Sequence record: MF327008
DNA: 64,000 nucleotides
From: Shigella phage Sf24
Reading direction: 5' to 3' (one strand)
Shown here in pieces: positions 13,905 through 26,383 of this stretch. Position numbers and translations under genes: made by a program. Below the pieces are notes generated by a model, which saw only the letters and a program-made list of their open reading frames with translations, was not told the DNA's origin and did not search any database. Position 1 is the stretch's first letter; each line of letters begins with the position of its first letter.

Positions 13905-14747
13905 TTAATCAACTGCTATTGGATGAATAACATTAAACTTATGAAATGCTTCTGATTTTTCTTTACGTGAAACGCACATGCGAAGAACCTTTAATGGTTC
14001 GTCTTCTTCACCCAACGATTTTCGTTTTTCAATATTAGAAGTTTTCCAACGAGCTTGCTCTGGAAACTCTCTATTGATTTGCTCAAGCGCTCTATTATGT
14101 TTAGAATTACTACGAATTGAACTGCACCCGCCAGGAGCTTGTGCTTTTCCAGATACAACCAGATATTTGAACAAGGCCAAATGCGGATAACCTTGATTAA
14201 TTAAATTGAGAAATGCATACATATCTTCGCACAAATCAATTTTTCCATACCCAATTTGTTCTGTCGTAAGTTTTCCAAGGTCATACCATGTATTCGTGAA
14301 TCCATATGAATTTTCACGATAATTACCCCAAGATGAAGTAATTTTAAAAATTGGTAGGCGAGCATGACCATGATAATACCCGCAATCCATGGCATCCTCA
14401 ACGTATTGAATCAATTCATAGAACTGTTCACGGGTTAATTGATTAATTTTATCTACGCAGCGACGATCATCTTTCTTTCGCATTGAGCTCATACGAATAG
14501 TAGTATCATCGTCAATCATCCAGATTCGTTGACCTGCATACATATCAGTAATTGCTTTACGAGTACCGGCAATTCCGTTTACATCATCAGGAATAGTTAT
14601 AATTTTAGCTCTAGACCCATAGGCATCATAATAAGCTTTTTCTTCATGTTCACGCACTACAATATGGGGTTCATAATCAGTCGGAAACATATCAAGGGCA
14701 GAAACTGCCCCGACACGCTGATAACTTGGAATTACGAATTGAATCAT
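13905..14747 (-). CDS. putative glycosyltransferase at the beta-gt locus (not T4 beta-gt)
   Basis: 280 aa from ATG 14745-14747 (ATGA overlap with gene 42 stop, AAGGTGAG SD); RIWMIDDDTTI DxD-like motif; does not match T4 beta-gt as recalled. Confidence 0.6.
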   Translation of the reverse strand: MIQFVIPSYQRVGAVSALDMFPTDYEPHIVVREHEEKAYYDAYGSRAKIITIPDDVNGIAGTRKAITDMYAGQRIWMIDDDTTIRMSSMRKKDDRRCVDKINQLTREQFYELIQYVEDAMDCGYYHGHARLPIFKITSSWGNYRENSYGFTNTWYDLGKLTTEQIGYGKIDLCEDMYAFLNLINQGYPHLALFKYLVVSGKAQAPGGCSSIRSNSKHNRALEQINREFPEQARWKTSNIEKRKSLGEEDEPLKVLRMCVSRKEKSEAFHKFNVIHPIAVD

Positions 14748-15484
14748 TTCCACTCACCTTTATAGTCTTTTTTCACAATATGAGTTTCGCCAGTATTCCA
14801 CCAATGATCAACCAAGTAAAAATGACGAGAATATACATGAAGACTTCCGACATTCCATATAATAGAACCTGCTTTATACTGACGAGTTGAATCGCCTGCA
14901 TTCAAATCAGATACTAATTTATCTAATACGTATTTTTGCCATGCATAATCATTACGGAATCCGAAGACCACGTCATTTGAGCGCATGCTTACTACTGCAT
15001 TGACTTTCTTATCACGAATCAGGTACTGTACTGTATTAGTACACATGAAATCTGACATACCATCTTTATTGTAGTCAAATTGCATGGATGGACGAGTATA
15101 AATCATGATACCACGTCGAGAATCAGGATTTTGACCAAGTTCAGCTAAACACATATCATACTGGGCATAGTTATCTTCTGACCAAATAGCCCAACCATAA
15201 TTCGAGTTAATTTCGCCTTTAGAAGATGCTACTTGTTGCCAAATCTTCGGTGTTTCACCTGGAATATCTTTAACAAACAAACTCTTAGATTTATACCATT
15301 CAAGTTCGCGCTGAATGTATTCATCATTAAGAGCGCCAAAAATAAACGGTTCATCTGCTACAAATGATGCGCCAATAATTTCAATAGTTTTAACACCGGT
15401 TTTATCAACTACGAAATCTTTTTCCTTTAATGCAAGCCCCAAATGAAGACGGATTTCTCCAACTGTCATATAATCGTTAATCAT
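14744..15484 (-). CDS. 42: dCMP hydroxymethylase (gene 42)
   Basis: 246 aa; thymidylate-synthase-like; matches T4 gp42 as recalled. Confidence 0.93.
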   Translation of the reverse strand: MINDYMTVGEIRLHLGLALKEKDFVVDKTGVKTIEIIGASFVADEPFIFGALNDEYIQRELEWYKSKSLFVKDIPGETPKIWQQVASSKGEINSNYGWAIWSEDNYAQYDMCLAELGQNPDSRRGIMIYTRPSMQFDYNKDGMSDFMCTNTVQYLIRDKKVNAVVSMRSNDVVFGFRNDYAWQKYVLDKLVSDLNAGDSTRQYKAGSIIWNVGSLHVYSRHFYLVDHWWNTGETHIVKKDYKGEWK

Positions 15485-15491
15485 TTAAACC

Positions 15492-15641
15492 TCAATTGAT
15501 GCATTCATATTTAATTTGTAACAGTAATAAACTCCAACCTATAATAAGTGGCGGAATCATAAGAGGAACTGTTACGCTATAGTATATACTTATTATAATC
15601 ATCAAGATTAAAAGCAACACTGCTATAATTTTGCTTTTCAT
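15492..15641 (-). CDS. hypothetical 49-aa membrane peptide translationally coupled to imm
   Basis: Hand-translated MKSKIIAVLLLILMIIISIYYSVTVPLMIPPLIIGWSLLLLQIKYECIN; ATG overlaps imm TGA (ATGA); GAGAAGGA SD. Confidence 0.4.
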   Translation of the reverse strand: MKSKIIAVLLLILMIIISIYYSVTVPLMIPPLIIGWSLLLLQIKYECIN

Positions 15642-15889
15642 TCCTTCTCTCTGATGATAATTACCTGATTTGGTTGTGCAGACTTTTTAGTTTCACCCGC
15701 AATTGACCAAATAAATGTAATAAACCAACCAATAATTGACCAGTTAAACAGTAAAGATGTGAAAAAGATTCCTACTGTCGATTTTGACCCACGCATCAAG
15801 GCGATAAACCATGGAAGCATGTATATAATAATAGCCAACACACCTGAAACTAAAACCATAAAAATTGAACCTGCTACTAAAGTTTCCAT
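15638..15889 (-). CDS. imm: superinfection immunity protein Imm
   Basis: 83-aa two-TM membrane protein; synteny between 42 and 43. Confidence 0.85.
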   Translation of the reverse strand: METLVAGSIFMVLVSGVLAIIIYMLPWFIALMRGSKSTVGIFFTSLLFNWSIIGWFITFIWSIAGETKKSAQPNQVIIIREKE

Positions 15890-15896
15890 GTTTTCC

Positions 15897-16277
15897 TCAC
15901 TTAGTCAAATTTTTTACACATGAATTATAAGAATTCACTACATACTCCATCGGAGCATTTTTACCGGTACGCCATTGGTAATTATTAGCCCAATTAGCCC
16001 AAATTTCGGCGCAGTAGTTTTCAATTTTTTCTTCGCGTGTAATTACATCAGAATTACGATATGCTTGAGCAGATTCATCTGGACGAATAGCTTCGTCAAA
16101 ATTCGCCTGCATTTGTTCGACTGTTTGCTTTGGAGCTTCTTTATAACACTTGACATTAGGATTATAAAATTTGCTTGAACAGTTTACAATTTTTCCTACA
16201 TCAGACTGATTTACTACCGGTCCTTGAGCTACACAACCAGTAAGACCTAATGCAATAACCAAAATAGCGATTTTCAT
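15897..16277 (-). CDS. putative lipoprotein (126 aa)
   Basis: Signal peptide with lipobox LTGC. Confidence 0.6.
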   Translation of the reverse strand: MKIAILVIALGLTGCVAQGPVVNQSDVGKIVNCSSKFYNPNVKCYKEAPKQTVEQMQANFDEAIRPDESAQAYRNSDVITREEKIENYCAEIWANWANNYQWRTGKNAPMEYVVNSYNSCVKNLTK

Positions 16278-16287
16278 AATAATTTCC

Positions 16288-16524
16288 TCAAATGCAAGTA
16301 GTAATTACTCCAGTAGTGCTTATGCAGGTATTACCCATTTGCACACCTAAAGATCCATTTGTATTCACATGAAGATTATCATCAATTTTAACTGATATTT
16401 TACCATTAGTGTGAATAACGGTGCTAGATTCAATCACAGGTTGAGTATCATTTTCAACACTAACAAATGGAACTGCTGCTAATGCAACTAAACAAACTGC
16501 TAAGCATCCCATAACAATTTTCAT
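16288..16524 (-). CDS. hypothetical secreted small protein (78 aa)
   Basis: Track ORF 16288-16536; start moved to ATG 16522-16524 with GGAGAATAAA SD; signal peptide; early promoter upstream. Confidence 0.55.
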   Translation of the reverse strand: MKIVMGCLAVCLVALAAVPFVSVENDTQPVIESSTVIHTNGKISVKIDDNLHVNTNGSLGVQMGNTCISTTGVITTCI

Positions 16525-16558
16525 TTTATTCTCCAAATCCGTATTAGTTGATAGTTGT

Positions 16559-16588
16559 ATAGTACCATGGAAGAACAGGGATGTAAAC
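16559..16588 (-). promoter_or_regulatory. early promoter with conserved leader
   Basis: GTTTACA-N18-TACTAT followed by ACAACTATCAACT...GGAGAATAAA-ATG. Confidence 0.7.
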
Positions 16589-16667: not shown

Positions 16668-16691
16668 ATGAAAAAGGGACCAGGAGGTCCC
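16668..16691 (-). terminator. intrinsic terminator after gene 43
   Basis: GGGACC-UCCU-GGUCCC followed by UUUUU. Confidence 0.65.
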
Positions 16692-16704
16692 TAGATTTAT
16701 TCTA

Positions 16705-19401
16705 TCAGCCAAACAGGAAGTCTAACGAAGCTTTTTCTTCATAGTCCATACCAGCCGATTCACACATGCCTGCAAGCGGTTTAACAAACGATTTTTGGAA
16801 CAAAGTTGAGTAGTCAATCCAAGACAGTACGTCAGAACGAATTTCTTTTGGAAGTTCTGTACCCGACGGCCAAGCAATGCATTTGTCACCAAATGGATTT
16901 CCTTCACGCAATGGAAGAACCATTACTTTATTTCCATCCAAAATTGGAGCTACACCTAAACCGCTAACAGCTCGACGATAAGTTAGCACACCACGAATAT
17001 GGAACGGACATTTAAATCCTGGCCAACCTTTATCATCATATTTCGCTATATCGTTCGCAGTTTTTACTTCAGCAATAACTTTATAGTCAAGTTGACGATA
17101 TTCTTTCTCGAAGTTCTTGTAATATTCTTGGACAGACTCTTCACCTTCCTGAAGAATACGACGAATACTTTCTTCGAGAGCTTCTTGGACCGCTTTAGGC
17201 GTTGAACTCTGCTGAGTTTCCATACCCATGATTTTTAGATGCGGTTCAGCAAATCGCTTATCTTCCATATCATAAACGTTCAGAGCATAACGCTTTTTCG
17301 CTTTCCAAAATCCACCAACGCCCTTTGAACCAAGTGGAGGGCAAGAAATAGCTTCACGGTCCATATGCATCAGATGCTCGCGGTTATTCATATAATCACA
17401 TAACTCACGATATGCAACATCAATCATAGGTTCCATCTTTTTCTTACCAAACTGATTCATGAATTCAACTAAATCATTTTGTTCTTTAAAGCGATCAAGA
17501 CCTACTTTTTCAATAACTTTATCTACACAAACATATACCGAATCAGTATCACCTGCTGCGATGAAATCTTCACCATTAGTTCCACATACTTTATTCAGAT
17601 ATTCATTAATTTTGCGAGCAATCCACTGAATACCGACTTGACCGAAAATTGTGATAGCAGTAGCATTTCGCAAATCATAGTAGCGGAAATGAATATTACC
17701 AAGAGCACCATAAAGACTGTTAATAAGAATTTTACGGTTCAGCTGATTTGTGTTAGCAAGTGTAGCTGCTTTTTCACATTCTTCAATCAGACTATTGAGA
17801 ACAGATTCGGTGTAATTCGATAATTCATTTAAGAAATCATCACTGAACTTAACATATCGTTCAACTTCTGGTTTAGTTGAGCAAGACCCTGCACCTTTCA
17901 TAATAATCTTTTTAATAGCTTCGGCATTCATTTCTTCCGCGAACATTTTCTTTTTCCAATCTTTACGCTGGAAAAATACTTTAGCGATTTCCTTTGGAAT
18001 GATACCTTCTTGGTGCTTATCATACATCCATCCATTCGGAGAGCAAGAATATTCATCACTTGGCTTAGGAGCTGTTCCTGTGATATATTCATGAATTGGA
18101 TGAACTTTAAACTGCCCGCGAATAGTCTCAGGACTAATGTTAACCTGACGAATAATGCTAGGATACAGAGACGTCAAGTCAAAACTCATAATGTATCGAC
18201 GAGCAATCGGTTTAGGTTCAAACACAAATGCACCTGGAAAACTCTGTTTAACATGCGAACCTTGTTGAGGAATAACCTTATGTTCACCTTTAAGTGAGTT
18301 AAAAATAATAGCGTCCCAAGTTTTAATAGGACTCATTACACCAGAAAAAGGCATTTTAGCGTAATAAGACATACTTAAAACTAGATCGATAAACCCACGA
18401 ATTTTATCAATTGCTTGAACTGATTCTACGTCAATGATGTTATAACTAATGTATCGTTGATGATTAGTCTCACGAAGTTTATTAATAGGACCATCGTACG
18501 GCAATTTACCTTTTTTGGTTTCATGTTGAGCAACTGATTCCAAAGAGAACGATGGCAAATTAGTAAATGCGAATTTCTTGTACAAATCTAAATAATCAAG
18601 AATAGACACGCCATCAATAGAATAAATTTCTTTGCTACCGTACATATTTTGAATTAGTTTAGATTTTACCCGACCGATTGGAGAGAAGCGTTTCATACTA
18701 CGTTCACCGAGAACCATTTTAACGCGATTCATGATATACGGAACGTCAAATCCCTCAATATTCCAACCAGTAAAAATAGCAGGTCGTTTCTGTTCCCAGA
18801 GATTAATATATTCCATGAGCATATCGCGCTCATTATCAAATGGCATATAAATTACTCGGTCAAGAATTTCTTGAGGAACTTCATCACCACCTTCACAGTC
18901 AAGCTTAGCAGCTAACTTTGCATCCCATTTTGATACTGAACCATACATTGAATTCAAAAGGTCGAAAACATAAAAACGATCATCAATTGAATCGTAATGA
19001 GTGATAGCATCAATTTCATATTCAGCTTTCATTGGGTCAGGAAATTTATCACCAGTAACCTCAATGTCACAGTTAGCTACACGAACAAATTTTCGGTCAT
19101 AAACAATTTCTGAACCGTATGTATCACTGATATAAGCGAGTTTAAAATCGTTCATACCGAGAGCTTCGAGACCGATGTCTTCCATTCGTTTCATCCAATC
19201 TCGAGCATCTTTCATTGATGGAAATTTTTGAGGAGCGCAGTTTTTACCATAGATGTCTTTGTATTTTGACTCTTCCTTACAATGCCTAAACATAGTCGGA
19301 AGATATTCTACTTCACGAGTACGTTCCTTTCCGTTTTCATCAATATAACGTTCAACAATGTTATTTCCAACTGTTTCGATAGAGATATAAAATTCTTTCA
19401 T
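16705..19401 (-). CDS. 43: DNA polymerase (gene 43)
   Basis: 898 aa; family B pol, exo motifs and GDTDS. Confidence 0.97.
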   Translation of the reverse strand: MKEFYISIETVGNNIVERYIDENGKERTREVEYLPTMFRHCKEESKYKDIYGKNCAPQKFPSMKDARDWMKRMEDIGLEALGMNDFKLAYISDTYGSEIVYDRKFVRVANCDIEVTGDKFPDPMKAEYEIDAITHYDSIDDRFYVFDLLNSMYGSVSKWDAKLAAKLDCEGGDEVPQEILDRVIYMPFDNERDMLMEYINLWEQKRPAIFTGWNIEGFDVPYIMNRVKMVLGERSMKRFSPIGRVKSKLIQNMYGSKEIYSIDGVSILDYLDLYKKFAFTNLPSFSLESVAQHETKKGKLPYDGPINKLRETNHQRYISYNIIDVESVQAIDKIRGFIDLVLSMSYYAKMPFSGVMSPIKTWDAIIFNSLKGEHKVIPQQGSHVKQSFPGAFVFEPKPIARRYIMSFDLTSLYPSIIRQVNISPETIRGQFKVHPIHEYITGTAPKPSDEYSCSPNGWMYDKHQEGIIPKEIAKVFFQRKDWKKKMFAEEMNAEAIKKIIMKGAGSCSTKPEVERYVKFSDDFLNELSNYTESVLNSLIEECEKAATLANTNQLNRKILINSLYGALGNIHFRYYDLRNATAITIFGQVGIQWIARKINEYLNKVCGTNGEDFIAAGDTDSVYVCVDKVIEKVGLDRFKEQNDLVEFMNQFGKKKMEPMIDVAYRELCDYMNNREHLMHMDREAISCPPLGSKGVGGFWKAKKRYALNVYDMEDKRFAEPHLKIMGMETQQSSTPKAVQEALEESIRRILQEGEESVQEYYKNFEKEYRQLDYKVIAEVKTANDIAKYDDKGWPGFKCPFHIRGVLTYRRAVSGLGVAPILDGNKVMVLPLREGNPFGDKCIAWPSGTELPKEIRSDVLSWIDYSTLFQKSFVKPLAGMCESAGMDYEEKASLDFLFG

Positions 19402-26205: not shown

Positions 26206-26342
26206 ATATCAAGAACCGTCATTGAAATGCAAAATAAAATTATTGAAATAAATCCATCTGGAGTGCTAAAGAACCCAATCCAACATGCTCTAGTGAATAG
26301 ATAAAATGCGAGAAAAAGTATCACATATCCAAGAAATATCAT
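26202..26342 (-). CDS. hypothetical 46-aa hydrophobic peptide (47.1 position)
   Basis: Hand-translated MIFLGYVILFLAFYLFTRACWIGFF...; stop overlaps gene 47 ATG (ATGA). Confidence 0.35.
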   Translation of the reverse strand: MIFLGYVILFLAFYLFTRACWIGFFSTPDGFISIILFCISMTVLDI

Positions 26343-26365
26343 TATATCAAACTCCGTATAAAGCT

Positions 26366-26383
26366 AAAGGGCCGAAGCCCTTT
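26366..26383 (-). terminator. C(UUCG)G hairpin at the 3' end of alpha-gt
   Basis: RNA AAAGGGC-UUCG-GCCCUUU overlapping the a-gt stop. Confidence 0.45.

Follow-up and report, generated by a model that had tools for sequence, protein, structure and literature searches.

A conserved 49-codon gene for a predicted membrane peptide between imm and gene 42 of Shigella phage Sf24, overlapping the middle promoter P42

The interval between imm and gene 42

The window analysed here is a stretch of 64,000 nucleotides of Shigella phage Sf24, to which all position numbers refer. It belongs to a T4-type phage of the genus Tequatrovirus, and a 701-bp query around the ORF under study retrieved 501 phage records at 90–99% identity. 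All the genes of interest are placed on the minus strand, and the genes and translation signals of the region are the following:

16705–19401, minus strand: gene 43, DNA polymerase
16288–16536, minus strand: ORF of 82 aa (PHROG 4189) with a hydrophobic N-terminus, flanked by the gene 43 terminator and imm.1
15897–16277, minus strand: imm.1 (DUF5481)
15638–15889, minus strand: imm, superinfection immunity gene of 83 aa, the upstream cistron (PF14373 Imm_superinfect, E=7.7e-16; PHROG 1039)
15642–15651, minus strand: purine-rich, Shine-Dalgarno-like stretch GAGAGAAGGA (sequence)
15638–15641, minus strand: ATGA junction of the imm stop (TGA, 15640–15638) and the peptide start (ATG, 15641–15639)
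15492–15641, minus strand: 49-codon ORF for a predicted two-helix membrane peptide of 5.6 kDa (ORF listing, PHROG 3610, PF26865)
15494–15492, minus strand: TGA stop codon of the peptide (sequence)
15490–15493, minus strand: Shine-Dalgarno sequence of gene 42, GAGG (in AATTGAGGTTTAAATG), overlapping the peptide stop codon
14744–15484, minus strand: gene 42, dCMP hydroxymethylase, the downstream cistron (ORF listing; gp42 in RB51 and T4)
13905–14753, minus strand: TAGT-family glycosyltransferase, following gene 42 and overlapping its stop codon

The 153 nt that separate imm from gene 42 are filled by the 49-codon ORF, whose product reads MKSKIIAVLLLILMIIISIYYSVTVPLMIPPLIIGWSLLLLQIKYECIN (49 aa). 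Its start codon overlaps the stop codon of imm as ATGA, an arrangement that a first-pass annotation of this DNA had described and that both the ORF listing and the sequence confirm, and the ATG of gene 42 (15484–15482) follows 7 nt beyond its stop codon. The purine-rich stretch ahead of the ORF doubles as the last codons of Imm (..R-E-K-E), and the orthologues of this upstream gene in related phages carry the imm annotation. The first-pass annotation had taken the region for what would otherwise be an intergenic gap; the ORF does occupy it, but the same bases also contain the middle promoter P42, mapped in T4 and described below.

Several neighbouring genes showed features of their own. The 82-aa ORF is annotated in RB51 and missing from T4, where the gap between gene 43 and imm.1 measures only 183 nt, and its true start is likely the ATG at 16524, placed behind GGAG. 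The N-terminus of the imm.1 product (MKIAILVIALGLTGC) has a lipobox and the protein is probably a lipoprotein; its name in RefSeq T4, 'iduronate sulfatase', looks like a mis-annotation. The TAGT-family glycosyltransferase, whose RB51 copy is noted as similar to the T2/T6 beta-glucosyl-alpha-glucosyl transferases, occupies the place of beta-gt and segA in T4.

The peptide and its family

The peptide is strongly hydrophobic, as the first-pass annotation had stated, with a GRAVY value of 1.6, 30 of its 49 residues being Ala, Val, Leu, Ile, Met, Phe or Trp and only four being charged. An AlphaFold2 model, calculated from an alignment of 18 sequences, places two helices at residues 2–24 and 26–44 that are separated by a break at an invariant proline (mean pLDDT 86), a prediction in keeping with a small helical hairpin in the membrane. 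Most likely the peptide would be seated in this form in the inner membrane, both insertion and topology being predicted. A fold search of the model against the PDB returned nothing, and the sole match in BFVD was the member of its own family from phage Bp7.

The members of the family share the motif P-x-M-I-P-T ... W ... Q-x-K-[YF]-x-C, and the residues invariant in the alignment (Met1, Tyr20, Pro26, Met28, Pro30, Trp36, Gln42 and Cys47) are all found in the Sf24 peptide. At position 31 Sf24 has a proline where nearly all its relatives have a threonine. Two copies depart from the pattern at the C-terminus: one from Tequatrovirus (locus L030, positions 2001–2150) carries a tyrosine in place of Cys47 (..KYEYIN), and a distant one (locus L022, positions 1998–2144) has an additional C-terminal cysteine (..CFNC).

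The ORF is not new, as it encodes a member of an already catalogued family. The identical protein is annotated in Sf24 as hypothetical protein gp172, and the exact T4 sequence is listed in UniRef as 'Uncharacterized 5.6 kDa protein in Gp42-imm intergenic region'. Residues 3–49 match positions 1–47 of the 47-position profile PHROG 3610 (E=1.1e-24), and the precomputed domain PF26865 (Phage_T4_Y02C) is present on the identical protein and on all 21 homolog clusters; a local Pfam scan of the peptide gave no match at E≤1, presumably for want of the PF26865 model in the local copy. With its 49 aa (45–51 in the family), two hydrophobic helices split at the conserved proline, a position between genes 43 and uvsX and a start codon that overlaps the upstream stop, the Sf24 peptide is a typical member.

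The family is narrow, its members falling into 21 clusters when grouped at 90% identity. When 1.84 billion representatives were searched exhaustively with a profile, only 5 clusters were recovered, one of which, a repetitive protein of 481 aa (P0038), was discarded as spurious. The genuine members of the 21 clusters and of this search measure 46–51 aa and include neither fusions nor informative names; where a source is named, it is in every case a T4-like Enterobacterales phage. The T4 copy, Y02C, shows no difference of substance with respect to the Sf24 peptide, apart from Pro31 in the latter: both are 49 aa long, occupy the same locus, overlap imm as ATGA and carry P42 within the frame, with 90% identity between the proteins and a mean column identity of 97% in a local DNA alignment of Sf24, T4 and RB51.

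The nomenclature of the ORF requires some care. The peptide bears the name gp42.1 in the RB32 and RB51 annotations, and that of VR26 describes it as "similar to bacteriophage T4 gp42.1", whereas in the T4 entry of 1988 (M37159; locus L031, positions 2259–2510) 'ORF 42.1' is imm and 'ORF 42.2' is imm.1. The name 42.1 is therefore ambiguous and unfit for searching the older literature. No gene is annotated at the ORF in the T4 GenBank record (AF158101), in RefSeq (NC_000866) or in the original 1988 entry, and literature searches on gp42.1, Y02C and the small proteins of T4 retrieved nothing on its function or expression, nor did they retrieve a T4 ribosome-profiling paper. The ORF is missing from the supplement of a time-course study of the T4 transcriptome and proteome (PMC9697503), since that study relied on the RefSeq gene models, which lack it. 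The value of the present analysis is mainly one of annotation: the T4 reference records (AF158101 and NC_000866) omit a conserved gene under selection, and studies based on RefSeq consequently never measure its product.

Conservation was analysed in 27 homologous loci from a phage collection and from IMG/VR, which include the named genera Tequatrovirus, Mosigvirus (HX01), Gaprivervirus (VR26), Kanagawavirus (Q7622) and Mosugukvirus (PM2) together with some IMG/VR contigs whose genus is not established. The frame is open in every one of them (27/27, 45–49 codons), so that the conservation in relatives that the first-pass annotation had proposed to look for extends over several T4-like genera; T4 itself has the same intact 49-codon frame (26227–26376) with the same overlap with imm. 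Entropy per position is 0.85, 0.45 and 1.24 at codon positions 1, 2 and 3, respectively, pS exceeds pN in 320 of 325 pairs of homologous copies, and dN/dS amounts to about 0.05–0.3 in close pairs. A run of 48 stop-free codons was kept in only 1.4% of composition-matched shuffles (28% GC), and a tblastn search yielded 493 records that cover at least 80% of the peptide. The peptide is kept although its neighbours differ, with imm or a SIS gene upstream and gene 42, a 166-aa ORF or a nucleotidyltransferase gene downstream. By these comparative measures the stretch genuinely encodes a protein, because its substitutions are of the coding type and the frame is kept across genera; together with the confident two-helix model, this pattern bears out the small membrane-peptide gene of the first-pass annotation. 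An interpretation of the region as an RNA element was rejected (fold z-score −0.47, no Rfam match).

Probable translational coupling and the embedded promoter P42

Upstream of the start codon the sequence runs ...CAGAGAGAAGGA-ATGA, and GAGAAGGA (15649–15642) directly abuts the ATG. The best duplex with the anti-Shine-Dalgarno 3' end of 16S rRNA has an energy of −5.1 kcal/mol in Sf24 and lies 0 nt from the ATG; the Shine-Dalgarno sequence of the first-pass annotation is present, but poorly spaced. Over the set of homologous loci these energies are mostly between −0.6 and −3.5 kcal/mol, with three between −5.1 and −5.9, and the start codon overlaps the upstream stop codon in all 27 (ATGA in 25, TAATG or TGATG in 2). 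The peptide is probably produced by termination-reinitiation, since its start always overlaps the stop of the preceding gene and its own Shine-Dalgarno sequence is weak or badly placed. In this arrangement the peptide would be made by ribosomes that come directly from the end of the upstream cistron. The coupling put forward in the first-pass annotation is supported to this extent, but it is not confined to imm.

T4-like genomes are generally rich in four-base overlaps, with many gene pairs showing them, and the ORF resembles other coupled cistrons of these phages in combining such an overlap with a weak independent Shine-Dalgarno sequence. It differs from them in that the overlap persists despite the exchange of the gene upstream (imm or a SIS isomerase gene), which suggests selection for the coupling itself. 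Since the peptide stop codon overlaps the Shine-Dalgarno sequence of gene 42, imm, the peptide gene and gene 42 appear to form a chain of coupled cistrons, and on early mRNA they would be translated one after the other as such.

The frame also contains the signals of a middle promoter. In T4 the MotA-dependent promoter P42 has been mapped, with its start site at 26320 (Hinton 2010, PMC2988021, Table 1), which by arithmetic corresponds to nt 57 of the ORF, in codon 19. The equivalent features in Sf24, and those that could provide earlier transcripts, are the following:

15610–15619, minus strand: P42 MotA box GTTTGCTTTT, with the core TGCTTTT at 15616–15610 (motif; codons 8–11 of the ORF)
15592–15597, minus strand: P42 −10 element TATAAT (motif; codons 15–17)
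15585, minus strand: predicted P42 transcription start, homologous to T4 26320 (nt 57 of the ORF, codon 19)
16559–16587, minus strand: site resembling T4 early promoters, GTTTACA ... TGgTACTAT (consensus scan, sequence)
16675–16692, minus strand: intrinsic terminator of gene 43, a strong hairpin (AGGGACC...GGTCCCT) with a T run, directly after gene 43

The MotA core, a 12-bp spacer and the TATAAT element (15616–15592) fit the rule for middle promoters, in which the MotA box lies about 12±1 bp upstream of a sigma-70 −10 element TAnnnT (PMC2988021), and the stretch from core to −10 element is identical in Sf24 and T4. P42 shares with the MotA/AsiA-dependent middle promoters of T4 the MotA core, the spacer length and the TATAAT element, and its predicted start matches the P42 entry; it differs from them in lying wholly within a coding frame, where the same bases serve as Leu, Ile and Met codons. 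The literature found on T4 middle promoters makes no comment on such a promoter-within-frame arrangement. Over nucleotides 24–62 of the ORF the 8 Tequatrovirus copies compared do not differ at all from one another; the other genera lack the motif and yet retain the peptide. The low synonymous variation of this segment in Tequatrovirus may partly reflect the promoter and not the protein.

As P42 starts transcription in codon 19, the full-length peptide could be made only from early transcripts begun upstream. In Tequatrovirus the promoter in codons 8–17 would fire within the frame and give middle transcripts that serve gene 42 only, and the complete peptide would come solely from early transcripts that originate upstream of imm. 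The early-type site at 16587–16559, which lies downstream of the gene 43 terminator, is probably the source of the polycistronic early mRNA that would encode the peptide. The locus offers a compact case of a promoter within a coding frame, one that should confine the peptide to early mRNAs.

Relation to Imm and possible roles of the peptide

Taken together, these observations make it very likely that the locus holds a membrane-peptide gene of the Y02C/gp42.1 family, coupled by reinitiation to the gene before it and containing P42 within its frame. As to its function our best guess, held with low confidence, is that of an early accessory inner-membrane factor acting on the host envelope, and not of an obligate subunit of Imm.

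A dedicated partnership with Imm, in which the peptide would be co-translated with it, sit beside it in the membrane and be needed for, or enhance, the block to the entry of superinfecting DNA, was weighed against these data and appears unlikely. The ATGA adjacency of imm and the peptide is seen in Tequatrovirus, in Gaprivervirus (VR26, MN01), in one metagenomic relative and in four imm-linked loci (L017–L020) taken as Dhakavirus-type, and both products are small and hydrophobic and come from a single pre-replicative unit of transcription; the supplement of PMC9697503 labels imm.1, imm and gene 42 'early' or 'middle'. Apart from size and hydrophobicity, and from Imm being the adjacent overlapping pre-replicative cistron in T4-type phages, the two proteins show no sequence relationship, as the peptide does not match PF14373 and belongs to a different PHROG. 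The gene to which ATGA joins the peptide in Mosigvirus, Mosugukvirus, Kanagawavirus and similar loci is instead one for a SIS-domain sugar isomerase, and a nucleotidyltransferase gene follows the peptide. Mosigvirus, the sole SIS-linked genus checked for imm, does have this gene, which agrees with a partnership, but about 10 kb away and adjoining spackle. Imm is also found without the peptide alongside: in S16 (Gelderlandvirus) imm overlaps gene 42 and in Jiaodavirus it ends 8 nt from gene 42, with no member of the peptide family within 1.5 kb of imm in either of them, nor in the first 50 kb of S16, the part covered by the scan. Homologs of Imm are moreover spread far more widely: they occur in at least 1000 records, 135 of them from Klebsiella phages, and the peptide in 768. 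Lu & Henning (1989) reportedly obtained exclusion from imm carried on a plasmid, which also counts against a partner being required.

The comparative evidence is therefore mixed and on balance speaks against a specific, obligate Imm partnership; the imm-specific coupling of the first-pass annotation does not hold, given the coupling to SIS genes in other phages and the imm genes of S16 and Jiaodavirus that are not followed by the ORF. The possibility that the 46-aa gp22.1 of S16 is a homolog that has moved elsewhere was dismissed, as this protein is hydrophilic and has no HMM match. As a separate observation, in Escherichia phage LF82-3 (Mosigvirus; locus L032, positions 1501–2106) imm lies directly upstream of spackle, so that in Mosigvirus, unlike in T4, the two known superinfection-exclusion genes are neighbours.

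A looser version of the partnership proposal would see in the peptide a second membrane factor, hitherto unnoticed, which acts early in superinfection exclusion by T-even phages or in remodelling of the envelope. It would work with Imm where the two are coupled, and the embedded promoter would serve as its timer. The promoter would then confine the peptide to the first minutes of infection while the expression of gene 42 continues. We regard this as rather improbable. The mechanism of the classical exclusion system is not known to be settled, and a peptide that aids exclusion would be a new component of it; the comparative evidence lends this little specific support.

A further rival reading assigns the peptide to the DNA-hypermodification and nucleotide-sugar cluster between genes 43 and uvsX, whose enzymes it might, for instance, tether or regulate at the membrane. 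The peptide is always found in this interval, immediately upstream of gene 42 in Tequatrovirus, and in PM2, HX01 and the metagenomic contig L039 it stands just before the NTP_transferase gene of a cluster for sugar activation whose last gene is gene 42. Such a role is nevertheless very unlikely, as Gaprivervirus MN01 and VR26 keep imm and the peptide but lack both gene 42 and a nucleotidyltransferase gene between 43 and uvsX, the sequence offers no hint of enzyme binding, and a location within a hyperplastic region says little. In PM2, HX01 and the metagenomic contig (L036, L037, L039) the order is SIS isomerase, peptide, NTP_transferase/kinase-like gene, Peptidase_U32-like gene and gene 42, presumably a sugar-activation cluster for DNA hypermodification in which the peptide gene is embedded.

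That the frame acts only in cis, as a bridge that carries ribosomes from imm to gene 42 or as an opener of the gene 42 ribosome-binding site, with a functionless peptide, is highly improbable. The overlap of the peptide stop with the gene 42 Shine-Dalgarno sequence, at 7 nt from its ATG, and the frequency of overlap chains in T4-type genomes would agree with it, but across genera the amino acids are subject to purifying selection and some residues are invariant, and the ORF persists in loci whose downstream gene is another one, 9 to about 40 nt away.

Finally, the reading of the region as non-coding, merely the P42 promoter and the 5' leader of gene 42 with an incidental frame, which the mapped promoter and the silence of the T4 GenBank, RefSeq and 1988 records could favour and which the first-pass annotation had named as the finding that would overturn its own proposal, is in effect already refuted by the comparative data: the substitutions are of the coding type, RNA-structure signal is lacking, a chance open frame has the low frequency given above, and the ORF is conserved in genera that have neither the promoter motif nor gene 42 downstream.
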